63,980 nt of DNA, filler included, from Aduncisulcus paluster (GCA_024181965.1; 7 parts of 7 records of this genome joined end to end with filler, not necessarily neighbours in it); one strand, 5' to 3'. Shown: positions 22,220 to 54,940, counted from the first letter of the whole stretch. Numbers and translations: made by a program. The notes: generated by a model not told the origin, from the letters alone.

Positions 22220-25200
22220 CGTTTATCTTTGTATGATTCAAATCAAAACAAGACAACTAAGACCTTTTCTCTTTGTCCAGCTGCTCAATCAATTACACCC
22301 AAGGCCTCTCTAGATGGAGAGAAAGCCCTTGACGATGCCATGAAAGAATGTACTGTTCCGACAATTTCAGACCATTGTGTTAGAGATCAACACAATCAAA
22401 TAACATATAACGTTGATGGGCCAGCTTTGTTGACAATTCCAACATTTTCTTCTGATTCCACTTCCCCAATATCATCCTCACCCCGACAGAGTCCCTATCC
22501 ATCCCATGATACAAATTGGAGTTGTTCCAAGAGTGATAGTCAAGGAGATGAGACATCGAAAAAATTCTATTCATGGTATTACTTACCAATTTGCTGCTCT
22601 TCTCGTGGTCTGGAAGTGGAAAGAATAGATGTCGAAAGCCTTGCAGAAAATGACGAACAGATACCTTTGATATCCATGGGAAAAATGATCTTTGTTGGAC
22701 CAGAATATGATAGTTTCTCAGATGGACTGAGTATTGTTGGCCCAAGTGATAGCGATTCTAGTGGCAGAAAAGATTCTTCGGATACTGATGATTCTTCGGA
22801 TACTTCTCCATTGGATCGAATCAGGGAGTTGAAAAAAAAGAATGGTGATGGCAGATCTGTATCTAAAACACCAGAGGCAACACTTCGATATGGTTTTGGA
22901 GATCAATATCGTATTTCTCCCGACCACAACACAAATCCCCACATCTCAACAATAAGACTAATATCACATACGGCTATAGAAAATGAGCACGAAGAACAAG
23001 AATATGAATATGCAGCAGAAACAGAATCTGTTGAATCTGGTTATCTTGAGTTTGGACAGCTCAATCCTCAAGAAGATCAAGATCAAGATCAAACGATTTC
23101 CAATGTATCCGATAAGTATACTGTTCTTACTCAAATTGATTCTTGTTTTAAAAATAACGCACTTTTCTTTAAATGTGAAACATCGAAAAGTCTTGATCCT
23201 CAGAAACATTCTCGACTATCTTCCTCTTCCTCTTCTTCTTCTTCTGATTCAACACAGGGCAGCCCTAAACCCCCTGAATTGAATGAAGATCATTGCGCAC
23301 CTCCCAACCCCCAAGCTCCATTCAAACGGATAGGTGGAGTTAGTAATCATAAGATAGTTCATTCTGAACAGTTATCTTCTTCTTTTGGCCCTGTGTGTTC
23401 CTCTATGATTACTCAGCAACAATATGGAACTCAAACAACACAAACTCATCAACCTTTCAGTTCAAGAGCTAGTCTTTCTTCTATTTATAGCACAAGAGTG
23501 ACATCCTCTCTTGAACCTGGAGCTGGAAGTGAAAATGACATTGGTCCATATTCCAATCCCATAGCTTCCTCTCCCTCGTTAATACATTCGACTCATGATA
23601 CTCATGATACTCATGATACTCATGATACCCATGAGACACGAATTTATTATGATTATGCTGCATCATATGATACATATTGCGAGGAAAAACATGATCTTTC
23701 TCAATATGAACATCATGAAGGAAACACTCCTTTGATGGAATGCCGTCATTATCAAGATGGAACTCGTCTTTCGACTGAAATAGAGAGCGAAGATCAACAG
23801 GACAGTATAGATGAATTTTCTCAAAGCATGATGTATAGTAGTTATAGAAATAATGGAGATTATTGTCCATTCTCATCAAAGGGAGATGAAAGGGATGTTC
23901 ATACACCCTCATTTAACAAGGAGTCAACCACATTTAAAACAGATCATTATCCTCTCAAGTACAAACCTAAGAAAGATTCTTTTACTTTGACTTCATCGTC
24001 AACAATCACTCGTTTGCGCTCCATTGGTCATGGTGGGTTTGGAGAGGTTCTTCTTGTCAAGGTTGACGGCATTGATTCTCCATGTGTTCTGAAGAAAATG
24101 CTCCGTGAAGCTGATGAAAGGGTTGTGAAAGATTGTCGAAAGGAGTTCAAGATGCAACTCAAATTGTTTACGAATGGCAAATGTTACAACCGTATCCCAC
24201 GTCCTCTGTATATCCTTGACCTGCTTGATTCCGACATGAAAGGTGTTTATGGCTTCCTGATGGAGTTCTGTGTTGGAGGCAGTGTTAGTGCGTTTGCCAA
24301 GCATTGGTGTGCTGATGGCAAGTATGTGAGTGTTGATGATACTGCTGATGATAGTGAACCCTCAGACTCTAGTTCTGCTTCTGACAGTGACGATCACAAG
24401 GATTTTGATCCCATGACACTGAACCCTGTGAAAGTGTGTTCATTATGTGTTGGAATGATCGAATGTCTTGCTGATGTGTTTAAGGCTAAACCAAAGCTTG
24501 TGCATCGAGACATTAAACCTGACAACTTCCTTGTTCGTGTTGATCCCGATTCTAAGAAATGCACCATAGTTCTTGCTGATCTCGGTCTTGCTCAGATCCG
24601 AAACTCCATCTCCTCTTCCACAAGCTATAAAAGCTTCGAATCCTCCCCCTCTCCTTTTTCTGATATTTCATTCCCAGAAGAGATTAAAGAGAAAAAAAAA
24701 TCACCTTTCAAGAAAATCTGCGGAACTCTAGTGTATAATTCATACCAAGCTCTTCATGGATGGTTTAGTCAAGCGAGTGATGCTTACTCACTCGGAATTT
24801 CAATATTGGCTCTGTTTATATGCCGAGACCCTTTCATAGAAATGCCAATATTTCGAAAGATTCTAGAAACTCCCGACGAAAATAGCAACATCAATCTCGT
24901 CAAAACTCTCATAAAAGTCATAGAAGAAGGAATGAGTCCCAAAATACACCAGTCAGTTCTGTTTAAATCGCTAAAAACACTCGAAGATGGTAAATTTTTG
25001 CCCATTTATTCATGTTTAAATCAGGTATTCGAAGGATTGACAAAATTTGATACTGACGAACGAATGACTGTTAATGTAGCCCGATCACATGTACAAACGA
25101 TTAAGCACTTGCTTCCAAAGATTGGAGAAGGATTAAATTGGGAGAAATGTTCAGCAATTCCTGTATCACCACTAATCACCTACCCTCAATCGTTGTATGA

Positions 25201-25252
25201 TCATTCAGAAGCTTCCATAGAAAATAGTGTGGCTGAAAGTCTGATTATGTAG
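22220..25252 (+). CDS. Ser/Thr protein kinase of the expanded family, 5'-partial, with a long low-complexity N-terminal region
   Basis: IGHGGFGEV, VLKK, HRDIKPDN, ADLG, CGTLVYNS and SDAYSLG are present. The frame is open to the contig edge. The remnant TSKKFYSWYYLPI resembles the repeat domain. Confidence 0.9.
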   Translation, partial: RLSLYDSNQNKTTKTFSLCPAAQSITPKASLDGEKALDDAMKECTVPTISDHCVRDQHNQITYNVDGPALLTIPTFSSDSTSPISSSPRQSPYPSHDTNWSCSKSDSQGDETSKKFYSWYYLPICCSSRGLEVERIDVESLAENDEQIPLISMGKMIFVGPEYDSFSDGLSIVGPSDSDSSGRKDSSDTDDSSDTSPLDRIRELKKKNGDGRSVSKTPEATLRYGFGDQYRISPDHNTNPHISTIRLISHTAIENEHEEQEYEYAAETESVESGYLEFGQLNPQEDQDQDQTISNVSDKYTVLTQIDSCFKNNALFFKCETSKSLDPQKHSRLSSSSSSSSSDSTQGSPKPPELNEDHCAPPNPQAPFKRIGGVSNHKIVHSEQLSSSFGPVCSSMITQQQYGTQTTQTHQPFSSRASLSSIYSTRVTSSLEPGAGSENDIGPYSNPIASSPSLIHSTHDTHDTHDTHDTHETRIYYDYAASYDTYCEEKHDLSQYEHHEGNTPLMECRHYQDGTRLSTEIESEDQQDSIDEFSQSMMYSSYRNNGDYCPFSSKGDERDVHTPSFNKESTTFKTDHYPLKYKPKKDSFTLTSSSTITRLRSIGHGGFGEVLLVKVDGIDSPCVLKKMLREADERVVKDCRKEFKMQLKLFTNGKCYNRIPRPLYILDLLDSDMKGVYGFLMEFCVGGSVSAFAKHWCADGKYVSVDDTADDSEPSDSSSASDSDDHKDFDPMTLNPVKVCSLCVGMIECLADVFKAKPKLVHRDIKPDNFLVRVDPDSKKCTIVLADLGLAQIRNSISSSTSYKSFESSPSPFSDISFPEEIKEKKKSPFKKICGTLVYNSYQALHGWFSQASDAYSLGISILALFICRDPFIEMPIFRKILETPDENSNINLVKTLIKVIEEGMSPKIHQSVLFKSLKTLEDGKFLPIYSCLNQVFEGLTKFDTDERMTVNVARSHVQTIKHLLPKIGEGLNWEKCSAIPVSPLITYPQSLYDHSEASIENSVAESLIM

Positions 25253-28268: not shown

Positions 28269-30242
28269 TCTGCACACCAACGCTTGGAGAATGCACTCAC
28301 ACTGCCTCCAACACAGAACTCCATCAGGAAGCCATATATACCTTTCATATCGCAATCAAGCAGGTCAAGGATATACAGAGGACGTGGGATACGGTTGAAA
28401 CATTTGGGATTGTTAAACAACTTGAGTTGCACCTTAAACTCCTTCCGACAATCTTTCACAACCTTTTCATCCGCGATTTTAAGCATCTTCTTCAGAACAC
28501 ATGGGAAAGGAATGCCATCAACTTTGACAAGAAGAACCTCTCCGAACCCACCACTGCCAATGATGCACTGGGGAGTCAGGGTGGAGGCAGATGTCAGGGT
28601 TAGCGAGTCGTGCTTGGGTTTGTGCTCTTTTCTTTCTTTTTCTTTTTCTTTTTCTTTGGAAGATGACTCTTGGACTTTAGCAGTCTCTGTGGCTAGATCA
28701 AGAGCTTCACAGGAGACATCATTCTTTTCTTTCAATACAATCTCTCTCTTTAATTCTATAGATTTGTATTCTTTCTCTTCTTCTCCTTCTTCTCTCCTTT
28801 CTTTCTCTTTCTTTGGGTATGATTCAGTAAGACTTGAATAAGATTCTGATCCAAACCCAGAATCCAAAGACAACAAGGCAGAATGCTGGGGGGTTGAAGA
28901 CGAATGAATAGGAGTTCGTTCGAAAGGAGATGAAGATGTTTTTTTCGATGATGATTGAATTTTTTGGATTGATGGATTTGTAACGGTCTGGAACATTTCA
29001 GGTCTTCCACTCTTCACGAAAAAGAGCGAGAATATGAAGAAATGTCGACAACTACGATACTCCCATGTTCCTTTCCCTTGAATTATACATAACACAACAT
29101 TAGAGAGATCAGTGGGGAGGAAATACCATTCGTCCCACTCCTTAGGTCTTGGGAAGCTGAAACGCTTCAATGTATTTGTACCATCTGTGTGAACAAAAGT
29201 AAATAAAAGATCAGGGGAACTAAATTTCTTGTGAACACAGATATAAACACCGGCAATAACCTTTGGAGAAGGGAAAGGAATGGAAAGATGAGACGCTGTG
29301 AGACTATCTTTTCCTTGTATCATTCTCAAAGCATTGGAATTCTGGTTGTATCCTTTCGATTCCTTGCCAAAAGATGAGTTTGTTGATTTAATCATTGTGA
29401 AAGTTGGTTTGATGACGGTGTAATCATCTCGAGGAACTGGAGGATGTTTCAGACCTGAAGTACAATATTCAGCATTCGCAAGAATCTAATTGATATTTGA
29501 AGATGGATAAAATGTAAGGTTTTAAGAATAAGATTAGCATATATAATTCAATAATAATATAACGAATAGTACAGTATAGTATAGTACAGTATAGTATAGT
29601 ACAGTATAGTATAGATCAATAGATAATAGAATAACAACATACAGCAGATACCCATTGCTTTGAAAAGGAATCTTCTTTGAATTTACGAGCAACGGATTCC
29701 TTTGGGGTTTCTTTTCGGACAAAAACAAGGGAATCGATACAAAAATACTCAGTTTTTTGACCTCTTCCTTCGATTTCACAGCGAACGGCAGGACTAGAAA
29801 GATCAATGGGAAGGTAAAACCAACAAGGGCCTTCAATTTCATGAAATTCATACTTTTTGGATATCCTTTGTTTCTTTAAGGTGAAAACAAGGGACGACGG
29901 TGAGGAGTCAGTATTCCAGAGGCATATATAAGCACCTTTGATATATGTGGGTGAGGAGAAGGGAATGGAAATATGGGTAAAAAATCCAGAATTATATTCT
30001 CTCTTAACCATCCACCGAGCTTCATAACTTTGATCTGGTTTAATGTCAGGATCTTGTCCGGAATCATTTCTAGCTGTGAGATTGGAAACATTCAGAGAAA
30101 TGATAGTGGGATCGGTTCCGGGGATTGGAATGCAATTTCTATCACCTTTATGAATAAAAACAGGTTGAACAATTTCCTGAGTGACAGGAAGAGACACTTT
30201 AGCTTTCTTTGAACGAGAACTGAATCGAGAGAAAATACCCAT
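28269..30242 (-). CDS. Repeat-domain (x2) + kinase protein, 3'-partial; exon 1 30242-29643, 157-nt phase-0 intron 29642-29486
   Basis: The splice QWVSA|ILANAEY joins the 208-aa and 392-aa ORFs in frame. Two copies of the SIPF..KGAYIC..W.FLP.DL..CEI.G domain precede the kinase N-lobe. Confidence 0.88.
29567..29614. repeat. Intronic microsatellite (TAGTACAGTATAGTA)x3
   Basis: Pentamer-based TAGTA/CAGTA array inside intron 29486-29642. Confidence 0.9.
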
Positions 30243-41769: not shown

Positions 41770-44700
41770 TCACTTCCGACTATCATCCCATCCTTTCTTC
41801 AAATTAACACCTGCAACATGTCCAATGATTCCAACAGATCCACCATATTTCTTGAGTTGTTTGGAGACAGTTGTTTCAATGCTGGGACATTTCCATCCTT
41901 CTCCAATCTTGGGCAGAAGAGGCTTTATGGATTGTACACTCATTCGAGCCTGATGCACACTCATTCGTTTCTCAGCATCAAATTCTGTGAGACCAAGGAA
42001 AACTTTGTTCAGACATTCGTACACAGACTTAAACTTCCCAACTTCGATGGTTTTCAGAGATTTGAACAGCTCCGATTCCACAATTGTCGTGCAAGACCTC
42101 TTTTGGATGAGCACCATAAGCTCACTCACAAATTCCGCCCCACTATCAATCCATTGTAGGGCAGGCATTTGAAGGAATGGAGTACACCCCAAGAATAGAG
42201 CAAGCATCGATATTCCAAGAGAATAAGCATCACTCTTTTGACTATGGATCCCTCGAAGAGCTTCGTATGAGTTGTACACAAGGGTGCCACAGATCGAACG
42301 TTTTGGTTGTTGTGCCTTTCCTTTCACATCCGACTTGGACAACTGGTAGGAAGAAGAACCCACGAAACTCTTGGAAAAAGAAGAAGATGAGATGGAATCC
42401 TGGATATGAACAAATCCAAGATCAGCAAGGACAACAGTACATTCTCCATCTTTGGGATCAACACGAACGAGGAAGTTGTCGGGTTTCACGTCTCGATGCA
42501 CAAGCTTTGGTTTGGCGGTGAACACATCATCAAGACACTCGATCATCCCAACACACAACGAACACACTTTCACAGGGTTCATTGCCTTGGGGCCGAATGA
42601 CGCACAGACATCATCTGCAGATTCAGAGGAAGAGCACTCAGAGTCTTCATCATCGACACCACTCTCATACTTGCCATCTGCACACCAACGCTTGGAGAAT
42701 GCACTCACACTGCCTCCAACACAGAACTCCATCAGGAAGCCATATATACCTTTCATATCGCAATCAAGCAGGTCAAGGATATACAGAGGACGTGGGATAC
42801 GNNNNNNNNNNNNNNNNNNNNCTTTCACAGGGTTCATTGCCTTGGGGCCGAATGACGCACAGACATCATCTGCACGAGTCAGAGTCTGAGTCTGAGGGTT
42901 CACTATCATCAGCAGTATCATCAACACTCACATACTTGCCATCAGCACACCAACGCTTGGCAAACGCCCTCACACTGCCTCCAACACAGAACTCCATCAG
43001 GAAGCCATACACACCTTTCATATCGCAATCAAGCAGGTCAAGGATATACAGAGGACGTGGGATACGGTTGAAACATTTGGGATTGTTAAACAACTTGAGT
43101 TGCACCTTAAACTCCTTCCGACAATCTTTCACAACCTTTTCATCAGCGATTTTAAGCATCTTCTTCAGAACACATGGGAAAGGAATGCCATCAACTTTGA
43201 CAAGAAGAACCTCCCCAAACCCACCACTGCCAATGATGCACTGGGGAGTCAGGGTGGCGGCAGAAGTCAGGGTTAGCGAGGGGTGCTTGAGTTTATATTT
43301 GGGCATGCCTTCCTTGGGTTTCTTCTGTTTGGTGTCTTTTGACGCTGAATCCTTATCATTTCCTTGAATGACATCTTCTATTCCTTCTTTCATAACCTTT
43401 GACGGCAAAGATGAAGTTGATGTGGGTGTCTTGGAGGAACTAGAAGGAACAGGAACAGGAGTAAGAAGAGGAGAGGAGAGAATATCATCACCTCGAATGA
43501 AAACAAGAGATAGGATAGAGAAATGACGACTATTCTTTTCCCACCACGTTCCTTTCCCTTCAATCTCACACAATACAACATTATTCAAATCAATAGGAAG
43601 GAAGTACCATCCATAATCACGTCTAAGTCTTGTGAATTCATACTTCTTATATGTTTTCTTGCCATCACAATCAGTGAAAGTGAAGAGAAGAGTTGGTGAA
43701 CCATAAGTTAAATCCACACAAATACATGCACCTTTTACAGGACTAGGTGCTGGGAAAGGAATAGAAAAATGGGATAAGGAAACACCACATTCTCCTTTTA
43801 ACATTCTTTGTGCATCTGAACTCCGATCATAATTCCCAGATTCCATACTCACCGAATCATCCTTGCACTTAACCATTGAGAATGAAGGATCAACAAGCTT
43901 TGGATCATCACGTGGAATGGGAATAGATTTTCTATCTCCTTTCTTAACAAACTCTGGTTTCACAACTGGAGCTTCAGACCATAGTTTCTCTCTGGCTTCA
44001 CGAGATTTGATTTCTTCAGGGGTTTCTTCCCTGCTAATGAAAACAAGGGATTCGATTCGAAAATACTCTTCTTCTCTTCCTTTCCCTGTAATCTCACACA
44101 TAACAACATCAGGGAGATCAACAGGAAGGAAATACCAATGTTCATCTTCAAATTCAGGAAACTCGTATTTCTTGGATGTTTTCTCACCCTTTGAAGATGT
44201 GAGAGTGAAAATAAGATGTGATGGAGGTGAAGGATAGCTTGATAGAGAGATAAAAGCCCCTTTCATTGGGGAAGATGAAGAGAAAGAAATAGAGATATTG
44301 GTAAAATGTCCTATATTATACTCTCCTTTCATCATCTCTTGTGCTTCAGAACTCTGATTGTACTTTTCATCACCTTCTTCCTTGGTTCCAGCTATTGCTT
44401 TGATTGTAGAAAACTCTGGACTCTTAATATTGGGGGAATCTCGAGGAATTGGAGAGCAAGAGGAATGTCCTTTATGAATAAACTCGGGTTCCACAGTTTG
44501 AATTACAGCATCTGTGGATGAACTCATGTGACAAGTGTCTTCTTCTTCTTCTTCTTTCACAACTTTTGATGGCAAAGATGAAGTTGATGTGGGTGTCTTG
44601 GAGGAACTGGAAGTAACAGGAACAGGAGTAAGAAGAGGAGGAGAAGTGGGAATATCATCACCTCGAAGGAAAACAAGGGAGTGCATCCAGAAATATCGAC

Positions 44701-47700
44701 AATTCTTATCACACCAATCTCCTTTCCCTTCAATCTCACACAACACAACATTATCCAAATCAATAGGAAGGAAATGCCATTCATATTTATGTTTAGGTTT
44801 TGTGAATTCATACTTCTTGAATGTCTTCTTACCATCACAATCAGTAAAAGTGAAGAGAAGAGAGGGTGAACTCAAATCCTTATTCACACAGATATAAGCA
44901 CCTTTCATAGGACTAGGTGAAGGGAAAGGGATGAAAAGATTGGATAACCATACATCACATTCCCCTTTTAACATTATTTGTGCCTGTGAACTCCGATCAT
45001 ACCACTTAGATTCCTTACTATACGAATCATCCTTGCACTTAACCATTGAGAATGAAGGATATACAAGCTTTGGATCATCACGTGGAATGGGAATAGAATC
45101 TCTACCATTAGATTTTCTATCTCCTGCCTTCACAAACTTTGGTTTCACAACTGGAGCTTCAGACCATAGTTTCTCTTTGGCTTCACGAGCTATGGTTTCC
45201 TCATGAGTTTCTTCTCGAATGAAAATAAGGGATCTGATTCCAAAATATCTTTTCTTTCTTCCTTTCCCTGTAATCTCACACAGAACAACATCAGGAAGGT
45301 CAACAGGAAGGAAATACCAATGATAATCAAAAAATTTAGGAAATTCGTACTTTTTGAATGTTTTATCACCCTTTGAAGATGTGAGAGTGAAGATAAGATG
45401 TGATGGAGGATGATTATCCTTTTGATAAGAAAAACGATCTAGAGAGATATAAGCACCCTTCATTGGGGAAGATGAAGGGAAAGGAATGGAAATATGGGTA
45501 AAGTGTCCAACATTTAACTCTTCTTTCATCATCTCTAGTGCTTTATATCTCTGATCGTGGTCAGAATCACCTTCTTCCTTGGTTCCATCTATTGCTTTGA
45601 TAGTTGAAAACTCTGGGCTCATAACATTGGGGGAATCTCTAGGAATTGGAGAGCAAGAAGAATGTCCTTCATGAACAAACTCAGGTTCCACAGTTTGTAT
45701 ATCAGTCGTCAATGAACTCATTAACAAAGAAAAAGAGTCGGAAGAGGAAATGAATAGTTTTTCACCTCCAATAAAAACAAGTGAGTTGATGCAGAATTTA
45801 AGACTATTTTTCTTGAACCACTGCCCTTTTCCTTGGATTTCACACAGACCAACATTATATAAATAAACAGGAAGGAAAAGCCATTCATGTTCATGTTGAG
45901 GTTCTGAGAAATCATACTTCTTGGATGTCTTCCTTCCATGAGAATCTGTGAAAGTGAAGAGAAGAGACGGTGAACTTGTATCCTTATGCACACAGATATA
46001 AGCACCTTTCACAGAACAAGGGGATTTAAAAGGAATCGAAAGGTATGATATGAATACTCCTTTTTTCAGTTTCCCTTTCAACATCTTTTTTGCATCAACA
46101 CTCTTATCATAATCCATCAATACTTGATCTTTTGCTGAAACGGCTGATATTGAAAGTTTTAACACCGACTCAGCACGTGGAATAGAATATTTCTCACCTT
46201 CTTTCATGAACTTGGGCTTTATGGATTGCTGAGAAAATAATATTGTTAACAAAAATTATCATTGAATAAAAGATAAACATAAGAAATTAAATTTAAACAT
46301 ACAGCTTCATCCCAAAATTGTTCAAGGGTAGATACTTGGGATTTTCGAGCAATAGATTCCTCTGGAGTTTCTTTTCGACAGAAAATAAGAGAAAAGATGG
46401 GAAATTCTCGAGTGAGAGCTTTATCGCACTGTTTTTTACCCTGAATTTCACACATTACAACATTTGTTAGATCGATTGGAAGAAAATGCCATTCAGTTTC
46501 ATCATCTTGTTTGGATTTTGGAATATCATATCTTATAGCAATTTGCACTCCATCAGAAAGAGTGAAAAGAATTGTAAGAGAGAGTGAACAAGTAGTATGC
46601 TCATCCAGACAGATATAAGCCCCTTTCATGGCGCTGGGGGATGGGAAAGGGATGGAAAGATGGGATAGGTATAAACCATCTACGTGTTCCTCTAAATCGC
46701 TCCAGGGAGTGGTGCAATATGAAAAACATGAAAATCCTTGTAACATTTCTTGTGCTCTCAAACTCACATCATAATGTTTCCCTCCAATAGAAACTCCATC
46801 ATTCTCTCCCTTGACTCTTAAGAATGAAGGGTTTATAACAATTGGATTATCACGAAGAATAGGAGGACAACATACCCCTCCTTTGTACAAAAACTCTGCT
46901 TGTACGACCTTCTACAATACGAAACAAATATCATTGAAATATATAGAAATAAGATATATAAGATAATTATATGACTAGAAATAGAAATATGAGAAACATA
47001 CAGCTTCAGATAGTAACTTTCGAGATGCTTTTTCATCTGTAGTTTCTTCTCGAACGAAAGAAAGTTGCATTAGACAAAATCTCCTCTCCTCTTCCCCTAT
47101 TTCCCCTGTAATCTCACACATAACAACATTCGAAAGTTCAATAGGGAGAAAAAACCAAGAGTGCCTTGTAAATATAGGAAATTTGTATCTTTTTGTTATT
47201 TTTTGCTTATTAGACAAAGTAAATGAGAAAAGGAGATTCATTGTTGGTGTATAATAATAATCAATCATCGACCCGTCAAAAATACGTGGTGGTTTTGGAT
47301 ATACATAAGCCCCTTTAATCTGAGAAGAAGAAAATGGGATGCTAATCTCATCTGTCTGTCCAAAATAATGGTTTTGGAGGACGGTAGGATCATCTTGAGG
47401 AATTGGAAGACAACGTGAAGAATCTTCATGAAGAAATATGGCATCATTAATTGTTTGAACCTCCTGGATGGAAGATTTATGATGAGAATGCCAGAGAAAG
47501 AGACAAAGAAATAGAAACGATTAAAAATGTTAGAAAATGGAATNNNNNNNNNNNNNNNNNNNNATAATGGTTTTGGAGGACGGTAGGATCATCTTGAGGA
47601 ATTGGAAGACAACGTGAAGAATCTTCATGAAGAAATATGGCATCATTAATTGTTTGAACCTCCTGGATGGAAGATTTATGATGAGAATGCCAGAGAAAGA

Positions 47701-47844
47701 GACAAAGAAATAGAAACGAGTAAAAATGTTAGAAAATGGAATGAAGCATGCTAATGATATTCACATATTACAATATCATGCCTTAAATGGGAAACACCCC
47801 TGGGATAACGATGGACATACTCCAGGACTTTCGGAAGAACTCAT
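41770..47844 (-). CDS. Repeat-domain (x7) + Ser/Thr kinase; exons 47844-47821, 47463-47002, 46911-46303, 46228-41770; assembly problems at gaps 42802-42821 and 47544-47563
   Basis: Three GTATGT..AG phase-0 introns join the ORFs in frame (MSSSESPG|EVQTI, LLSEA|KVVQAEF, FWDEA|QSIKPKF). Kinase motifs GSGGFG, HRDVKPDN, ADLG and GTLVYNS are present. Confidence 0.8.
43385..45722 (-). repeat. Recent ~1.15-1.2-kb intragenic tandem duplication encoding an A+B domain pair
   Basis: 43385-44527 and ~44550-45722 share long identical DNA runs (IQTVEPEF.H.GHSSCSPIPRDSPN...LWSEAPVVKP...SSSSKTPTSTSSLPSKV). Confidence 0.9.
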
Positions 47845-48172: not shown

Positions 48173-51100
48173 TCACATCTTTTTAACAGTTTTCTTCAGA
48201 GTGTGCATATATTCTCTTGTGATAGATTCAGAATAACGCCTGAAATTTAACACGCGCAAGGCCTTGGCATTTATCTTGAGATTTCCCGCGTATTGTGGAA
48301 CATCACAATTCTTAGCTGCGGCAAGAGCAACCTTATTCATCAAAAACAAATGATCTCCGACACTATCAAAGTTTTTCTTGTATTTCTGGAAATCACAACT
48401 TGCAGCAATACAAGCAAGTTCGGCACTTGTTTTGAGATGAAGAGAAATGCACCCAAGCGCTGGAGTAAACAACCTTTTCACCAACAATGGAGACAATCCA
48501 ACGACCACCACAGCCTGCTTTGTCGAATCGAGATCAGTCTGAGAAACCCTACCATCTTTCTTTGACGATCTTCTCGATTCTCCAACGACAGCTCCCGCCA
48601 GTTTACCAATATCTCTCTTGATATCAGCAGTCTCTCCAAGGGAAATGGCACGAGTCCGAGGTCCACTATCGAGCAATACACTTTCCACGACGGCACAGAG
48701 GGCATTTGAGAGACATGTCAATGTGTGGTTAACTTTATCTTGGAGCTGAGACACATGTGGACGAACTGTTTCATCGCCATTCCCAATCCGAACTCCACGA
48801 CAGCCAATGTATTTACCAATCATATTAACAACACACACGACACCTTCGTATATGATATCAGCACGATGTTCACTGACGGATGGAAGATAGAGTTGTCTCC
48901 AAAGGGGTCGTAAACCAATAAAGACAAATCTCCACATTAAGACACGTCTCCAGGCATCGAGTTTAGCTTCAGCTTGGGTCTTAATGCTTTCAAACAACAT
49001 CTTTATGCTGGATTGAGTTGAATGTGCACGGCCTTGACTCAATTCTTTGCTCATAATACTGCAAAACAGTATAACAGCCTGGAAAGAATTAATCCTGATC
49101 ATACAACACTCAATCTTCTTCAAAACAAGAGATAAATGCCGTTTTAATGTTAATATATGGGGATCTGTAGAGTATAATATTGATGATGCGGGGGCCAATG
49201 AAGAAGAATATGCCGATTTGAAGCCAGAACTTGCTGTCGGGAAGGATCTATCATCGGTGCCTCGATAACTCCTAGGATGAGTCGGGGGTGAACTAAATAC
49301 CCCAAAGAACTTTGTTGATTTCCTGTGCATCATGGTCACATCGTCATCCTCGGGGTATGGCGTCAGTGGAGTGTACTGAGATGTCGGTGGATCTGTGTGA
49401 TGAGTAAACATAGGACCAAGTAATGGGACAAGAGAGGACACGGGGTCTTCTTTCTCAAGAGAAAAGTTAAGATCATCTTCAAGGAATTTGCTCTGCTGTT
49501 GACAATATACTCTAAACATAGTCGCAACCATAGATGCAACCCTCACATGCACACTCTCTCCCTCAAGCTCTATGCTCTTATCTGCATAAAGAGTCTCCAC
49601 AATATTCCTGATGAACATCACAACGGCAAAGAGCGAAGAATCATAGATGATGCCAAGATAGTTGGCCACTGTGACAATGTCTTTGTTCGGAGGCGGGGAA
49701 AGGCCAGAGGAAGAGGGAGAAGCAATTGTGCTTGACGGCAGGGATACTTTCTGTGTGAGATCAACACTATTGCACTCGAACTCGGTCGACAACGTGACTC
49801 TTCGTTGCGAGGGAAGGGTGGACTGACGTAAGCATCGAATGGCCACCTGAGAGAGCTCACCTTCTTTGAGGCTACAATATCTCTGGATGGCCATAACAGC
49901 TAACACGGCTGGATCAGGTTTTCCTGGGGCAAGCGCAGTGAAAGTGGGTACAACGGCCATCTTTCGCATCTCCTTGACTCCCTTCTGGACAGCGGAAAGC
50001 ATTGAAAGCATGACACCTAGTTTGACAGCCAGTTGAGACGAATCCATGATAGATTCGGCCACAGATATGGCTGTCCTCGTAATGAACGAACAGCAATGGT
50101 GTTTCAAAGCCTTGTCAAACTCACCTGCATGTGAGATTAAAGGTGCGATAATATCCAAGATAAACAGTGTTGAAGTTGAGCATTGGTTTCCTAGAGTTTT
50201 GATGACTTTAGCAGGAACAGGAGGATTCTCAAGTAAAAGTTTATCCGATGACATACAAACATTTCCTGTATCGGGCATATCTGATTGCCCACCGTCTGCA
50301 TCTGATTCATCATCAAACAAAGTCATATGTGTAAGATCAGACACATCGAAGGAAGCCTTCGCCAAGAAATCTGGTTTCCTTTTCTGTAAATCATCACGTC
50401 CGCCCTTTGTTTTGTCATTCTCCAATAATTCAATATAATGCATCAAGTCATGTACAATACACAACCCTTCGTATTCAATGGATTGGATCACGATCTTCTT
50501 CAGAACATTTTGTTCTTGACCCCAAAGCACAGACAATGGACCACTTGCACAGTCAGCCACCTCAGCTCCTGCCAAAGAAAATGAGATCAAGGACGAAGAG
50601 AGAGCTTTAGAGTCTCGCTGGGAATCCATATCAGACATTGAGAGCGGCTTTGGAGTTTTTGATGCAGAAACATTATATTTAGATCCCAATTCATGCTCAA
50701 CGACATGTCTGGCCACTTCTCTATCAAGCTTATCCACTTGTTTCCTAGGACGTCTCTTATCCCACCATCCCTGTTGTTCTTCATCTTTCTGCTCTTCCTC
50801 AGGCTGGTAGGGCGAAGATTCAGACAATGCAGCCTCTTTCTTCTCTCTTGCCTCACGCAAATGCTTCATCCGAGAAATACGGGCACGTTCTCTTTCTGCA
50901 GCTACAAATAAGTGTTGTCCAAGAAGGTCATTCAGTTCGATTGGAGTATAAGAGTGAATATGAGGAGAAATATCTTCGTTCTGCTCTTCAATCTCTCCCG
51001 TGGAACCAGTAGTTTCTCTTTTCGAACCCCCGCCAGCATCACGGGTCTCTTCCTCTTTCTGCTTCTTTTCGAGAGACGTCACAGACATTCCACAAACGTC

Positions 51101-53836
51101 ACACAATCGACAGCACATCACTGTTTGTAGGACACCCTGGGAGATAATGTCGAAGGCGATTGCTTCGTCAGATGGCAGTGGAACCTCTTCATCGGTGCCC
51201 ACAGTGCCAGACGAAACACCAGAAGGGGAAGAGGAAATAGGAGAAGCAAGCTTAAGAGAGTCGAGACGGGTTGAATCCCTCACGGCTCCCATAATTACTG
51301 AAGTGCGATGCAGAAGATATTCGCAGTTCTTGACAATATTTGAACATATTTTGCATACCTCATTCAGCTGAACAGATGAGTGAAACAGTCGCCACTGTGA
51401 ATATCCTGACACCCAACAATGGTTCAACATCAAGGGTTCATCTTCAGCAGCCGTGGGGGACGTATAACGCTTCAGGGAGAGTCGTCTATCTCCTCCTAGG
51501 AATGGTGAGTGTTCTGACTTGAGCGACGATGACCCCATTCCATGAGATGTCGATAGAGGTGGAATCAGAGATCCACGGCCATGCGAGAGGGTTGTTACGA
51601 TACGTTTGACACCGGCTGAATGCATATTCTCAACGGGCACACCCAGACAGAACAAAAGAATGGTTGTTAACAGTTCAGAACACAGAGAAAGAGCATTGGA
51701 GAGCGCAAACAGTTCCTTAGTAGATGTTCCAGCGAGAGACAAATCAACCGATGAGGGTTCACCACCATATCCGTTCTCCTCTTTGAGTTTTTCTCTGGCC
51801 TGTTTCTTTTTCAGCTTTTCACGACGCTTCACATGATCGATGACGCCCTGAACACATCTCCCACTGACACGTTCGCAAATATATGACAACAAAAGAGCTG
51901 GAGTCACCGAGAATACTGAAGATATGAAAGGGCTAAGCACACTCACATATGAAACAATATCAAGACAATTCCTCTCCAGAGAGAAGTTACGGACAATAGT
52001 GAAGGCCAACGAGAGTGACAGGGGGCATGGAGTACATGAAGAACGGGAGGAAGAGTGGATAATCTTACCAATGAAGTCACGACGGATGCTACCAAGTTGG
52101 TTAAGTTTCCGCCGTTTCCGACTCTTCTTTGCATTGCTCTTGTTCTTCTTTGATCTCTGACACACAGAACTGTTTGCTCCACTCGAATCAACCATCGTGT
52201 GAACTCCTGATGGATCACCAGTGGTTGTCGCAGGGGGCATTGAAGAAACAGTGACATCTTGTGGAATATCAACGTCCAGCGGGTCTTCAAGAGCTTCTTT
52301 CCTCATTATAAATCCCCCACTTCGACTGATGGAAGATCCACTACTTCCGAGACGAGTACCAATCCCGCCTGCACCGGTCGACATGTGGGTATGGGAACTC
52401 TCCCCACCATAGCGTTGTTCCGTGTCAGTAAAAGTGTATGTTCTGGAGAACTGTTCCTCATCATCTTCCTGTCTTTTGGCCTCTTCTTGGCGCTCTTTGA
52501 CGCTATTCCACACACCGTCACTCTCCATCATAGACACAGCCTCTTCGATTCGTGTGACCAGGGCAAGGCATTCAACATAACAACCTCTTTTCGAATGGGA
52601 AGGGAAGAGAGTGCCAGAAACAGGGTCTTTCACACGACCAAGAACGACAGAGAGATTGAAGAGAGAAGAGGCAAGCTTCGTCTTGAGTTCGATATATTCT
52701 TTTCTACGTGTCACACCACGACTCCCATTTGTGAGTCGATTGCACACAAAAGCAGTACTCACAGAGAGAATACGATGGATCAGGGAGAGGGCAGAGGGGA
52801 AGGACAGGGGTGTCGGAGGGTGAAGATTCAGGTCTGACCCAAGAGAAGAAGTAGGAGTTGAACATGTTGATGGGGCCTCTGAGTTGGGGGAGGAAACACT
52901 CGGATCCGTCATTGTTGAACTTGGATCATCAACTTTGGATTCACCAGAAGCTACGGGAGTGCCCTTATCCTCTTCTTCATCCCCTAACAAGGAATTAATA
53001 AAATTTTTGAGTAGTTTTGCTTGACATAGCATCGGAATATCGGTTAAAACTTGTTCTCCACAAACATATTTCATTTCGTTACATACTTCACGGTGCGTAT
53101 TCGACACGATATTAAATGATGTTCTTACCATTGATACAACGCATTCGATCACATCAGTGTCATATTCTTTTGAATGGTATAATTCTCCAGGAACGACACA
53201 ATCAGAGTTTAGGAGAGGAATTAAATATGAGCATATGGATTGACCAAGCTGTTTTTTAGAGTAACCTTTGGCTCGTGGAACCCTAACACGACCAATATGA
53301 TGACCCAATGAAGCGATGAAGAGACTGTATGCAGTCCTTACTCTATCACCTTCTGTTGAGAGAATATCCGACAGGGATAACAAATGGAGTGGAGAAGTCG
53401 ACCACAGCGGTGATGGTGGTGGAGGGCGAGGAAATAGAGAAGATGGGGCCGGTGGCAATGAAGGGGCTTGGTGAATAATACCAGAGTTGTGGATAGATGG
53501 TTTCTTCTTTGACATAATAGAAGAATCATTTTCAATTAGTCCAATTCTTGTACTATTTATGGAATTTGCAAAAGATTTATCTAAATCTTCACGAGATGGG
53601 AAGGGCTTGGGAAAAGCATCCCGGAATAACAAATAGTCAGGATAAGGTCTTGAAGAAGGAATAAGGGGTAAAGATTGAGGAACGAGTTCTTTTTTGAGAA
53701 TATCAACAAGTTTTTTGCCATCAACTTCTGATAGATCAGCTGGACGAGGCAATTCGCGTAATTTTGGGTGAGAAGTCAGTAAATAGAATAATAAAGTTTC
53801 ATAATCTTGAACAACTGGCCGATAGAAGGGCCTCAT
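48173..53836 (-). CDS. 1887-aa MUN-domain (Munc13 homology / DUF810, PATROL1-like) tethering protein
   Basis: C-terminal FVFIGLR...LY...V...R, VLLDSGP.TRA......IKRD...L and LRVLNFR recall the MHD2 region of DUF810/unc-13 homologues. Confidence 0.55.
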   Translation of the reverse strand: MRPFYRPVVQDYETLLFYLLTSHPKLRELPRPADLSEVDGKKLVDILKKELVPQSLPLIPSSRPYPDYLLFRDAFPKPFPSREDLDKSFANSINSTRIGLIENDSSIMSKKKPSIHNSGIIHQAPSLPPAPSSLFPRPPPPSPLWSTSPLHLLSLSDILSTEGDRVRTAYSLFIASLGHHIGRVRVPRAKGYSKKQLGQSICSYLIPLLNSDCVVPGELYHSKEYDTDVIECVVSMVRTSFNIVSNTHREVCNEMKYVCGEQVLTDIPMLCQAKLLKNFINSLLGDEEEDKGTPVASGESKVDDPSSTMTDPSVSSPNSEAPSTCSTPTSSLGSDLNLHPPTPLSFPSALSLIHRILSVSTAFVCNRLTNGSRGVTRRKEYIELKTKLASSLFNLSVVLGRVKDPVSGTLFPSHSKRGCYVECLALVTRIEEAVSMMESDGVWNSVKERQEEAKRQEDDEEQFSRTYTFTDTEQRYGGESSHTHMSTGAGGIGTRLGSSGSSISRSGGFIMRKEALEDPLDVDIPQDVTVSSMPPATTTGDPSGVHTMVDSSGANSSVCQRSKKNKSNAKKSRKRRKLNQLGSIRRDFIGKIIHSSSRSSCTPCPLSLSLAFTIVRNFSLERNCLDIVSYVSVLSPFISSVFSVTPALLLSYICERVSGRCVQGVIDHVKRREKLKKKQAREKLKEENGYGGEPSSVDLSLAGTSTKELFALSNALSLCSELLTTILLFCLGVPVENMHSAGVKRIVTTLSHGRGSLIPPLSTSHGMGSSSLKSEHSPFLGGDRRLSLKRYTSPTAAEDEPLMLNHCWVSGYSQWRLFHSSVQLNEVCKICSNIVKNCEYLLHRTSVIMGAVRDSTRLDSLKLASPISSSPSGVSSGTVGTDEEVPLPSDEAIAFDIISQGVLQTVMCCRLCDVCGMSVTSLEKKQKEEETRDAGGGSKRETTGSTGEIEEQNEDISPHIHSYTPIELNDLLGQHLFVAAERERARISRMKHLREAREKKEAALSESSPYQPEEEQKDEEQQGWWDKRRPRKQVDKLDREVARHVVEHELGSKYNVSASKTPKPLSMSDMDSQRDSKALSSSLISFSLAGAEVADCASGPLSVLWGQEQNVLKKIVIQSIEYEGLCIVHDLMHYIELLENDKTKGGRDDLQKRKPDFLAKASFDVSDLTHMTLFDDESDADGGQSDMPDTGNVCMSSDKLLLENPPVPAKVIKTLGNQCSTSTLFILDIIAPLISHAGEFDKALKHHCCSFITRTAISVAESIMDSSQLAVKLGVMLSMLSAVQKGVKEMRKMAVVPTFTALAPGKPDPAVLAVMAIQRYCSLKEGELSQVAIRCLRQSTLPSQRRVTLSTEFECNSVDLTQKVSLPSSTIASPSSSGLSPPPNKDIVTVANYLGIIYDSSLFAVVMFIRNIVETLYADKSIELEGESVHVRVASMVATMFRVYCQQQSKFLEDDLNFSLEKEDPVSSLVPLLGPMFTHHTDPPTSQYTPLTPYPEDDDVTMMHRKSTKFFGVFSSPPTHPRSYRGTDDRSFPTASSGFKSAYSSSLAPASSILYSTDPHILTLKRHLSLVLKKIECCMIRINSFQAVILFCSIMSKELSQGRAHSTQSSIKMLFESIKTQAEAKLDAWRRVLMWRFVFIGLRPLWRQLYLPSVSEHRADIIYEGVVCVVNMIGKYIGCRGVRIGNGDETVRPHVSQLQDKVNHTLTCLSNALCAVVESVLLDSGPRTRAISLGETADIKRDIGKLAGAVVGESRRSSKKDGRVSQTDLDSTKQAVVVVGLSPLLVKRLFTPALGCISLHLKTSAELACIAASCDFQKYKKNFDSVGDHLFLMNKVALAAAKNCDVPQYAGNLKINAKALRVLNFRRYSESITREYMHTLKKTVKKM

Positions 53837-54163: not shown

Positions 54164-54940
54164 ATGCCATTTTTTGACCTCAAGAGCATCACAAGAATGG
54201 ACGGGACAGGACAGGAAAGATTTTTTCAACTCTCAAAAAGGTTATCCCATGTTAGAAAAGGAATTACCACTGAGAAGCAACTCCACTATTCGGCTATCTC
54301 CAAAAAACTGGATGCCACAGAAAAAGCGATTAAAAATTATACCATTAAAATGGATGAAAACTTAGCCTCTTTTAGAGATCAGATTGAGATCATCACAAAG
54401 GGTCTTGATTCTGAAGCTGCCGAACGGGAAAAATTGTCAGATGAAAAATCTAAAAGTATCGAAGCCCTTTCAGTATCTTTAAGAGATATTTTGACAAAAG
54501 AAACTGAAGAACGGAGGAAAGGGAAGAATAAGCTTACTAATCAGCTTGAGAGTGAAATATCTTCTCTCTCGCGTGATCTCAGTGAAATTGTATCCGAAAG
54601 ATGTGTCTCACGGGAGGAACAGAAGGCAATTTTCTCCTCCGATATTCAAAAACTCCAAGAACTTATTGAGGCCGAGAGAACTGATCGTCTCGAGACTGAA
54701 AAGGCAGCTTCTATTACCATCGATTCTACACTCGAAACAGTTGCCCGGATGATTGATGAGCAGAAAAGAGCACATGATTCGGCTGAAGAGAGGTTTATTT
54801 CAACATTAGAAGAAATATCCACCAGGTGTCGCATTCGTTTGGCCACTGAAAAGAAAGAAAGAGAAGAAGGGGAAGATATGCTTTTAAGGTTATTGGAAGA
54901 TACATGTAAAACAGAAAGAATGTATTTTAAAGGTGTATAA
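54164..54940 (+). CDS. SF-assemblin / beta-giardin family striated-fibre protein
   Basis: 258-aa segmented coiled coil with periodic E..ER motifs and a C-terminal EKKEREEGEDMLLRLLEDTC. Confidence 0.75.
   Translation: MPFFDLKSITRMDGTGQERFFQLSKRLSHVRKGITTEKQLHYSAISKKLDATEKAIKNYTIKMDENLASFRDQIEIITKGLDSEAAEREKLSDEKSKSIEALSVSLRDILTKETEERRKGKNKLTNQLESEISSLSRDLSEIVSERCVSREEQKAIFSSDIQKLQELIEAERTDRLETEKAASITIDSTLETVARMIDEQKRAHDSAEERFISTLEEISTRCRIRLATEKKEREEGEDMLLRLLEDTCKTERMYFKGV

Follow-up and report, generated by a model that had tools for sequence, protein, structure and literature searches.

Families that couple a protein kinase to a variable array of repeats are known on a large scale from Giardia, where 198 of the 278 kinases are Neks and 133 of these 198 carry variable ankyrin arrays. 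According to the same report, 71% of the Neks lack one catalytic residue and the repeat-only Protein 21.1 proteins probably belong to the Nek-ankyrin family (PMC3218828). Here we describe a kinase-repeat family found in Aduncisulcus paluster, which is a free-living, microaerophilic fornicate with a draft genome of 29.4 Mb (25,863 contigs; N50, 4.6 kb; 15,316 predicted proteins; 11,743 introns) (PMC9933649). The work follows up an original prediction made on a 63,980-base stretch of A. paluster DNA (the window) and centers on gene A (positions 41770..47844, minus strand), in which repeat units with a predicted galactose-binding-domain-like (GBD-like) fold precede a Ser/Thr-type kinase. The main text of the genome announcement discusses no gene families and does not mention a jelly-roll kinase family (PMC9933649), and no published description of such a family was found in the titles and abstract openings listed for A. 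paluster or in the literature on kinases of fornicates including Kipferlia bialata, or on expansions combining GBD-like domains with kinases.

The Giardia Nek/TALM-ankyrin/Protein 21.1 system and the A. paluster family are both massive, species-specific expansions, within Fornicata, of cytosolic kinases with repeats of variable length; both show abundant repeat-only paralogues, rapid duplication, and no receptor features (PMC3218828). They differ in the repeats, which are GBD-like jelly rolls of ~180 amino acids (aa) in alternating types a and c in A. paluster and ankyrin in Giardia, and in the position of the kinase, which is C-terminal in the former and N-terminal in the latter. Catalytic residues are kept in 46 to 48 of 48 A. 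paluster kinases, whereas the Giardia kinases are mostly inactive (PMC3218828).

Other proteins share the fold or the layout of the A. paluster family. In APC10/DOC, IFT25, muskelin, and PITH proteins, the GBD-like domain is a protein-binding module. The domains of APC10/Doc1, DOC (HECTD3, HERC2, and CUL7), IFT25, muskelin, and PITH, all intracellular, have their fold in common with the A. paluster unit (Z 10.2-11.7 over 118-154 residues), but they are 8-13% identical to it and occur once per protein, in contrast to the tandem a-c arrays with a kinase found here. The CBM32/F5/8 type C group contains the best structural match of a single unit (Z 12.0), and its member ZmpB also has a tandem (CBM32-1/2). 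However, those domains are secreted bacterial or animal binders of glycans and lipids at 4-8% identity, and the ZmpB tandem differs in inter-domain orientation (root-mean-square deviation [rmsd] of 11.6 Å over 271 residues; TM-score, 0.29). DDR1 and DDR2 also place a GBD-like jelly roll and a protein kinase in one polypeptide, and the ligand-binding domain of Eph receptors shares this fold class; the DDRs are animal type I membrane tyrosine kinases with one extracellular domain, whereas the proteins described here have no transmembrane segment, a Ser/Thr-type kinase, and 2 to 12 units. Titin, twitchin, and obscurin carry intracellular arrays of two alternating beta-sandwich types (Ig and Fn3) followed by a Ser/Thr kinase. 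The folds differ (Ig and Fn3 versus GBD-like), those proteins are encoded by few giant animal genes and not by hundreds of paralogues, and the PDB profile comparison, as far as it reached, gave no common kinase group.

A tandem cytosolic GBD-like array joined to a kinase is a new architecture, species-restricted in public data. By analogy of fold and architecture, we propose, with a probability of about 0.5, that the family is a lineage-specific modular targeting-kinase system whose arrays would tether or cluster the kinase at intracellular partners.

Results

The repeat unit has a predicted galactose-binding-domain-like fold

A hidden Markov model (HMM) of the unit was started from five units of the long open reading frame (ORF) of gene A and rebuilt once on 297 units from 91 relatives. 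Its consensus agrees with the motif string given in the original prediction. With this HMM, nine units were detected in the window, of which gene A has seven and a second member, gene B, has two. The domain had been left without a named family, and sequence searches concur. Pfam returned no family for five repeat ORFs at E 0.01 and, for 25 units at E 10, only seven unrelated families with one unit each (best E 0.013), and the unit profile had no match at E 10 among all PDB sequences.

The jelly-roll, galactose-binding-like fold that had been suspected is supported by structure prediction. The AlphaFold2 model of unit 5, built on a 25-sequence alignment, reached a mean predicted local distance difference test (pLDDT) of 92.6 and a predicted TM-score (pTM) of 0.86, and it shows an N-terminal helix followed by a beta sandwich. 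Comparison of this model with 48,161 PDB representatives by VIA-align gave 65 chains at a Z of at least 8, and the 50 matches listed span Z 12.0-8.8. The best match was the CBM32 of Clostridium perfringens ZmpB (Z 12.0, 138 aa, 3.1 Å), followed by yeast APC10/Doc1 (Z 11.7, 154 aa), human APC10 (Z 11.2), the DOC domain of HECTD3 (Z 10.7), the discoidin domain of muskelin (Z 10.6), IFT25 and the DOC domain of CUL7 (both Z 10.4), and PITH (Z 10.3), with XRCC1-N at Z 9.0. We take the 50 listed entries to be GBD-like jelly rolls (CBM32, APC10, F5/8C, muskelin, IFT25, PITH, and XRCC1-N), a fold that presumably corresponds to Pfam clan GBD and SCOP b.18. Foldseek likewise placed APC10 first for unit 5 (E 6e-5), with DDR1 at rank 33 (E 1.4e-3), and IFT25 was among the best structural matches of a type a unit (Z 11.3, 118 aa, 2.6 Å). 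In a viral structure library, the unit showed the same fold class and nothing closer than in the PDB, so there is no hint of a viral origin. An ESM Atlas model of the homologue P0117 (pLDDT, 0.55) gave weak leads within the same fold class (scores of at most 0.87; TM-score, ~0.5), which are not evidence alone. On these models, the unit is a new sequence family of the known GBD-like jelly-roll fold.

Alternating a and c units form the building block of the family

When 454 full units were clustered by Ward's method, they fell into type a (152 units), type c (235 units), and a divergent type b (67 units); average linkage had split off outliers only. Counts of neighbor transitions (a to c, 119; c to a, 50; c to c, 39; c to kinase, 60; a to a, 4; a to kinase, 3) show that the arrays follow the order (a-c)n, then kinase. 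In gene A, the order is x-b-c-a-c-a-c-kinase. A joint AlphaFold2 model of units 6 and 7 from 47 didomain sequences (pLDDT, 93.4; pTM, 0.88) has a helix at residues 170-185 between the two domains, which predicts a fixed mutual orientation and thus a rigid a-c didomain. Each unit of this model separately matches the GBD-like fold, and among solved structures no two-domain protein had a matching arrangement (TM-score of at most 0.34 or rmsd of at least 11 Å). The introns that genes A and B carry between units lie at an equivalent site (after ...SEA or ...VSA) and are all in phase 0, which suits duplication of whole units. Taken together, the a-c didomain is the building block of the family, occurring as free proteins of ~365 aa or in arrays of up to ~12 units before a kinase.

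An intracellular array of two alternating beta-sandwich types, variable in length and followed by a C-terminal Ser/Thr kinase, would also suit cytoskeletal or flagellar scaffold kinases, in which the arrays would serve as rulers, spacers, or cargo adaptors on this excavate's elaborate cytoskeleton of microtubules and fibers and the kinase would act locally. The match of type a units to IFT25 points the same way, as does the placement of four active Giardia Neks on cytoskeletal structures (PMC3218828). We nevertheless consider such a role rather unlikely. Ig and Fn3 domains are missing from the window members in Pfam searches, the kinase could not be placed in the CAMK/MLCK group, and hundreds of loop-variable paralogues exceed the needs of a structural role. 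No Ig or Fn3 entries occurred among the listed PDB matches of the unit and didomain models.

The family is large and species-restricted in public data

Genome-wide counts given here derive from database proteins. The original prediction of an expanded family is upheld by the HMM count, as 267 of 268 fetched proteins carry the unit, with ~695 units in all, and 82 of them also carry a kinase. The order of units followed by kinase recurred in 77 of 225 family proteins scanned first and, once the set had grown, in 82 of 267, and the largest array, in a single protein, has 12-13 units. Named relatives all came from A. paluster, whether the query was the long ORF (91 of 91) or a profile of the most divergent units (50 of 50), and so did a further set of 28 of 28 that includes one transcriptome-derived protein. 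An exhaustive HMMER profile search of 1.84 billion representatives returned 171 proteins at an E of at most 1e-3, 141 of them at an E of at most 1e-10, and the 20 weakest looked up among the HMMER matches listed were all from A. paluster.

The free a-c didomains (at least 27 proteins of 340-410 aa) open with MSSSTDAVIQTVEPEF... and close with ...ERLSLLPWK, and this C-terminal tail of the ~365-aa proteins (among P0231-P0265) is absent from kinase-linked arrays. Extra Pfam domains lie outside the units in P0007, P0052, P0065, P0087, P0122, P0207, and P0041, namely, fidgetin-like AAA, LRR, nitroreductase, DRG1 with ferredoxin, PARP, importin-beta, and integrase/chromo; these probably derive from merged neighboring gene models. 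P0055 carries an MSP domain between units and kinase, and this one may be genuine. The family grows via tandem duplication and fusion of a-c cassettes.

The kinase domain appears catalytically competent

Pfam Pkinase (PF00069) was matched at 49.4 and 48.9 bits (cutoff, 31.7), and up to 109 bits were reached in the paralogue P0175. In 48 full-length family kinases, the catalytic residues are kept almost throughout (K72, 48/48; E91, 47/48; D166, N171, and D184, 46/48 each), and the DFG motif reads DLG in 44. The HRDVKPDN motif (HRDxKPxN) is a Ser/Thr-type signature. As a single sequence, the kinase found CDPK1 best in the PDB (1.6e-5), with NEK1 at only 0.012, and the best matches of a kinase profile were mixed, with STK38 (1.3e-11) ahead of CDPK1, RIPK1, and CaMK1, so no kinase group, the Nek family included, is assigned. 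Judged by its motifs, the gene A kinase is a divergent eukaryotic protein kinase of Ser/Thr type with intact catalytic residues and looks active.

Family proteins lack features of membrane receptors

The original prediction saw no signal peptide or transmembrane segment, and the present data agree. No transmembrane segment was evident in the gene A pieces, whose highest 19-residue Kyte-Doolittle mean is 1.64, and nearly all of the 119 family proteins scanned lack a segment of at least 1.8 between units and kinase. The N-termini inspected (MSSSTD... or MG...) do not resemble signal peptides by eye; the free didomains begin MSSSTDAV.... The gene A product is thus best described from its sequence as a putative soluble protein of cytosolic type.

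The fold matches raise the question of extracellular lectin-type receptor kinases resembling discoidin receptors, whose outward-facing units would bind glycans or matrix, given that secreted carbohydrate-binding modules, factor V/VIII C domains, and DDR1 are among the top structures. The absence of a hydrophobic segment between units and kinase or at the N-terminus, the N-termini just described, and the Ser/Thr-type HRDxKxxN motif all speak against this arrangement, and the conserved free cysteines and CC pairs would suit a reducing compartment. We regard it as highly improbable.

Contact with membranes from the inside is another matter. Among 235 members that start with M, 22 begin with MG, a count not far above chance for Gly at position 2; several of them read MGxxxS/T or MGC (P0162, P0164, P0015, P0049, and others), motifs of the kinds that undergo N-myristoylation or palmitoylation. 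Gene B begins with MGIFSRFSSRSKKAK (30242-30198), which includes a basic patch, and eight members end in CaaX-like motifs (e.g., CCIV, CDIM, and CTVV). A subset of the family may therefore be lipid-anchored to membranes from the cytosolic side.

Loops are variable, and kinase and repeat cassettes have discordant histories

Across the family, median pairwise identity is 0.735 in the kinase N-lobe and 0.76 in the catalytic core, against 0.53 in the C-terminal lobe and 0.47 in the last unit. Within type c units, mean entropy is 1.14 bits in strands and 1.88 bits in loops (p 1.5e-6), and 11 of the 14 positions with at least 3 bits lie in loops. Glu, Asp, Tyr, Gly, Asn, Arg, and Trp are overrepresented at hypervariable positions; compared with moderately variable columns, Tyr reaches 9.6% versus 3.0% and Trp 4.2% versus 0.2%. 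Loops are thus more variable than strands, but they do not differ in every copy, as units 4/6 and 5/7 stem from a recent duplication of two units and share 74% identity as didomains.

These two recent unit pairs were used to compute the ratio of nonsynonymous to synonymous change (dN/dS), with columns picked by amino-acid variability, a choice that biases the ratio upward. The ratio was 0.58 overall (confidence interval [CI], 0.40-0.83), 0.19 in conserved columns, 1.17 in the variable half (95% CI, 0.77-1.96), and 1.00 in the top quartile. Given the interval of the variable half, there is no significant nonsynonymous excess, and diversifying selection in the loops, a point by which the original prediction was to be judged, is not demonstrated; relaxed constraint suits the values as well as selection does.

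The near-identity of the N-lobe in DNA, another part of that prediction, was reproduced (gene A versus gene B, 95.75% over 353 nucleotides [nt]; gene A versus gene C, a third member, 90.3% over 351 nt). Synonymous divergence (pS) between genes A and B is 0.55-0.9 through units and linker and falls to 0.04-0.18 from the first kinase residues onward. This low value shows that the near-identity reflects recent homogenization or exchange and not protein-level constraint alone. The kinase called constant is indeed more conserved than the repeats, but because its synonymous sites are near-identical as well, its constancy comes at least partly from recent homogenization, recombination, or assembly collapse.

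Pairwise identities of 39 proteins (741 pairs) correlate well inside the kinase (Spearman, 0.69-0.81), as they do for the last two units (0.82), and weakly between kinase and units (0.25-0.30). Quick maximum-likelihood trees of kinase and didomain cassettes disagree, and in approximately unbiased (AU) tests on clades picked after inspection of the trees, the didomain data reject the kinase clade (p 0.002) and the kinase data reject the didomain clade (p 1.6e-66). Recombination or gene conversion at the linker explains the drop in pS, the weak kinase-unit correlation, and the conflict between trees, and chimeric contigs could mimic part of it. Kinase cassettes thus appear to have been exchanged or homogenized independently of repeat cassettes.

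Such data invite comparison with diversified intracellular immune or sensory receptors, the role that the original prediction had favored. Hypervariable loops would sense diverse ligands of non-self or environmental origin, such as prey bacteria, viruses, or their effectors, binding would activate the constant kinase, and recombination of cassettes would diversify the repertoire. A family that is very large, species-restricted, and fast-evolving suits this role, as do the concentration of hypervariable positions in loops and their richness in Tyr, Trp, Asp, Glu, Gly, Asn, and Arg, the dN/dS of ~1.0-1.4 in variable columns of recent duplicates, the recombining repeat and kinase cassettes, and the kept catalytic residues. 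That dN/dS, however, is not significantly above 1, is biased upward, and comes from two unit pairs only; variable loops are usual in any beta-sandwich family; and the comparable Nek expansion of Giardia is cytoskeletal or developmental, not immune (PMC3218828). An immune or sensory role is an analogy, speculative and, in our view, unlikely.

Gene A is transcribed, and its array crosses two assembly gaps

Public annotation covers gene A in part only, by ADUPG1_008997 (P0001, 1449 aa), to which a 1128-codon ORF on the minus strand (42866-46252) was 100% identical in a protein search. Units 3-7, the linker, and the kinase lie on a single long exon (Table 1). No record labels run X2 as RNA, and it was treated as such solely on the ground that the two internal introns of gene A are missing from its contigs; these contigs skip exactly both GT..AG introns, which indicates that gene A is transcribed and spliced. 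RNA contigs back the two introns and the way in which the exons of units 1-3 are joined, and one contig at an identity of at least 95% spans the junction of units 5 and 6 with a 3-nt insertion. The ADUPG1_008997 model excises part of unit 1 as an extra intron, which the continuous RNA contig over 47002-47463 does not support, and it ends at a scaffold gap and so lacks the kinase C-lobe.

The repeat around the gap at 47544-47563 (Table 1) places the acceptor and the start of exon 2 in the assembly twice (47662 and 47463). The second gap falls in the acidic Ser-rich insert behind the kinase N-lobe, and behind it the sequence equals the end of gene B over 125 nt (100% identity). Together with the imperfect overlap of its flanks, this means that the C-lobe of gene A may come from a paralogue and that the gap may be a join between paralogues. 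Within the array, MSSSTDAVIQTVEPEF, the usual N-terminus of the family, occurs in frame (44480-44540) right behind a linker of pre-kinase type that has no kinase (...LPSKVVKEEEEEDTCH, directly followed by MSSSTD...). This suggests a fusion between an upstream array deprived of its kinase and a complete a-c-kinase gene, and the internal start may yield a shorter a-c-kinase product. The DNA run X1 covers the locus, with 8,805 short contigs mapping to 4.7 kb of gene A at an identity of at least 95%. This pile-up fits very many similar copies; summed depths were not read as copy number.

Could the family be real, and the seven-unit array, its link to the kinase, and the mosaic or constant kinase still be largely products of chimeric or collapsed contigs and merged models? 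The two gaps with duplicated flanks, the perfect match of the post-gap segment to gene B, a contig that ends within that same kinase segment, and the pile-up of run X1 contigs would all be accounted for, as would the gene models merged with unrelated genes (DRG1, importin, AAA, and LRR) and the mis-splicing of unit 1 in the annotated model. The 1128-codon ORF, however, runs unbroken through units 3-7, linker, and kinase N-lobe, the RNA contigs confirm both introns and the joins of units 1-3 and cover the unit 5/6 junction, and the order of units then kinase recurs in 82 of 267 proteins. An assembly product on this scale is thus improbable.

Other family members and remaining content of the window

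The window consists of seven contigs joined by 44N-12-44N spacers, with five further 20-N scaffold gaps inside; its GC content varies between 0.30 and 0.46, and the introns of its genes are short (GTATGT...AG). Besides gene A, it holds three family members, on the contig of gene A and on two others, and all four were located where the original prediction had placed them (Table 1). The fourth piece is indeed part of a family kinase, but its C-terminal tail and not the N-lobe. The predicted variation of the N-terminal part from two to seven units was recovered by the HMM, whereas the degenerate remnant seen in gene C amounts to a motif-level trace of 2.3 bits in a low-complexity region.

Table 1. 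Features of gene A and of the other family members in the window
Feature	Position	Strand	Remarks
Gene A, whole locus	41770..47844	-	~1,750 aa: seven GBD-like units, linker, and Ser/Thr kinase
Exon 1 (ATG ... GGA, MSSSESPG)	47821..47844	-	then GTATGT intron from 47820
Spurious 20-N scaffold gap	47544..47563		179 nt repeated on both sides, one mismatch
Exon 2 = unit 1, divergent, HMM match in two pieces	47002..47463	-	continuous in one RNA contig
Intron 2, 90 nt, GTATGT..AG, phase 0, unit 1/unit 2 border	46912..47001	-	absent from RNA contig record 14
Exon 3 = unit 2 (divergent type b, loop insertion)	46303..46911	-	unit HMM
Intron 3, 74 nt, GTATGT..CAG, phase 0, unit 2/unit 3 border	46229..46302	-	absent from RNA contig record 13
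Unit 3 (type c)	45725..46228	-	unit HMM
Unit 4 (type a)	45173..45751	-	unit HMM
Unit 5 (type c)	44618..45196	-	unit HMM; modeled alone (m37c70688f3d5)
Unit 6 (type a)	43985..44539	-	unit HMM; opens with MSSSTDAVIQTVEPEF
Unit 7 (type c)	43448..44008	-	unit HMM; modeled jointly with unit 6 (m6eae85a6be56)
Ser/Thr/Pro/Lys-rich linker, last unit to kinase	43295..43447	-	sequence
Kinase N-lobe (GSGGFGEV, VLKK) and start of acidic Ser-rich insert	42866..43294	-	sequence
20-N scaffold gap	42802..42821		flanks overlap 246 nt at 87.8% identity
Remaining kinase (HRDVKPDN, DLG, C-lobe, tail)	41770..42801	-	stop codon 41772-41770
Gene B (P0132)	28269..30242	-	start MGIFSRFSSRSKKAK; kinase N-lobe cut by contig start
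Gene B unit a	29658-30224	-	unit HMM
Gene B intron, phase 0	29486-29642	-	sequence
Gene B unit c	28928-29482	-	unit HMM; then linker and kinase N-lobe
Gene C	22220..25252	+	5' end cut by contig start; complete kinase 23975-25234
Fourth member: kinase C-terminal tail and stop codon	17383..17559	-	cut by contig end

Two further observations concern these members. The gene B intron contains a tandem short repeat of CTATA/CTGTA type (...actatactgtactatactatactgt...), and gene C has a THD repeat run at 23500-23560 (HDTHDTHDTHDTHE), with long Ser-rich low-complexity stretches in place of units.

Among the large neighboring ORFs (11142-13155, 54164-54940, and 11 others), an Hsp70 fragment lies at one contig end (E 1e-64), and one ORF has a weak SF-assemblin/beta-giardin-like match (24 bits, under the cutoff of 30.6). 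Eleven of these 13 ORFs, including one of 1887 aa (48173-53836), are without any Pfam family.

Discussion

We have described a family in which predicted GBD-like jelly rolls, arranged in a-c pairs, precede a kinase that looks active. New here are the alternating a-c pair, the phase 0 introns at unit borders, and the discordant histories of kinase and repeats with a sharp synonymous drop at the kinase start. The original prediction had overlooked the alternating pair, the many a-c proteins that lack a kinase, and the difficulties of the assembly. Under the targeting-kinase reading that we prefer, the a-c didomains would bind intracellular partners, either proteins (as APC10/DOC, IFT25, muskelin, and PITH do) or glycans, and their loop residues would set the specificity. 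The arrays would then tether or cluster the active kinase at these partners, in some members at membranes via N-terminal acylation, and a-c proteins devoid of a kinase would serve as adaptors or compete for the partners bound by kinase-linked arrays.

Several points weigh against this interpretation. The mechanism is drawn by analogy from fold and architecture. The fold matches share only 4-13% identity, a common fold shows no function, and with carbohydrate-binding modules as the best structural match, glycans are as plausible a ligand as proteins. Around half of the positions in the unit have a dN/dS near 1, which could equally reflect weak constraint on many copies. The fragmented short-read assembly (N50, 4.6 kb) breaks exactly within the conserved kinase segment, and some array lengths, the join of repeats and kinase C-lobe in gene A, and part of the kinase/repeat discordance could stem from chimeric contigs or gene models. 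The clades for the AU tests were chosen post hoc. Many unit-only models are partial or truncated. Finally, species restriction depends on the public data for relatives, and 21 of the 171 profile matches fell outside the listing.

On a bolder reading, hundreds of a-c cassettes with loops rich in Tyr, Trp, and acidic residues would be shuffled by recombination at the linker onto few homogenized active kinases, with kinase-less decoys or adaptors, making up a combinatorial intracellular receptor-kinase repertoire. We hold this to be rather doubtful. If true, the repertoire would sense changing intracellular ligands, e.g., of prey bacteria, viruses, or symbionts, and would represent an innate-immunity-like system that relies on a fold and an architecture not known to serve that purpose in animals and plants.

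The family accounts for at least 267 of 15,316 predicted proteins (~1.7% of the A. paluster proteome), now annotated merely as hypothetical. With it, the galactose-binding-like fold gains a new sequence family that comes with a confident didomain model and signs of cassette exchange. The family also constitutes a second kinase-repeat expansion in the lineage of Giardia, apparently independent, in a free-living relative, with a different binding fold and active-looking kinases. Lineage-specific kinase-repeat expansions of the Giardia type raise the question of their purpose, and the A. paluster family offers a tractable case in which to ask why genes for targeting kinases multiply in fornicate flagellates.

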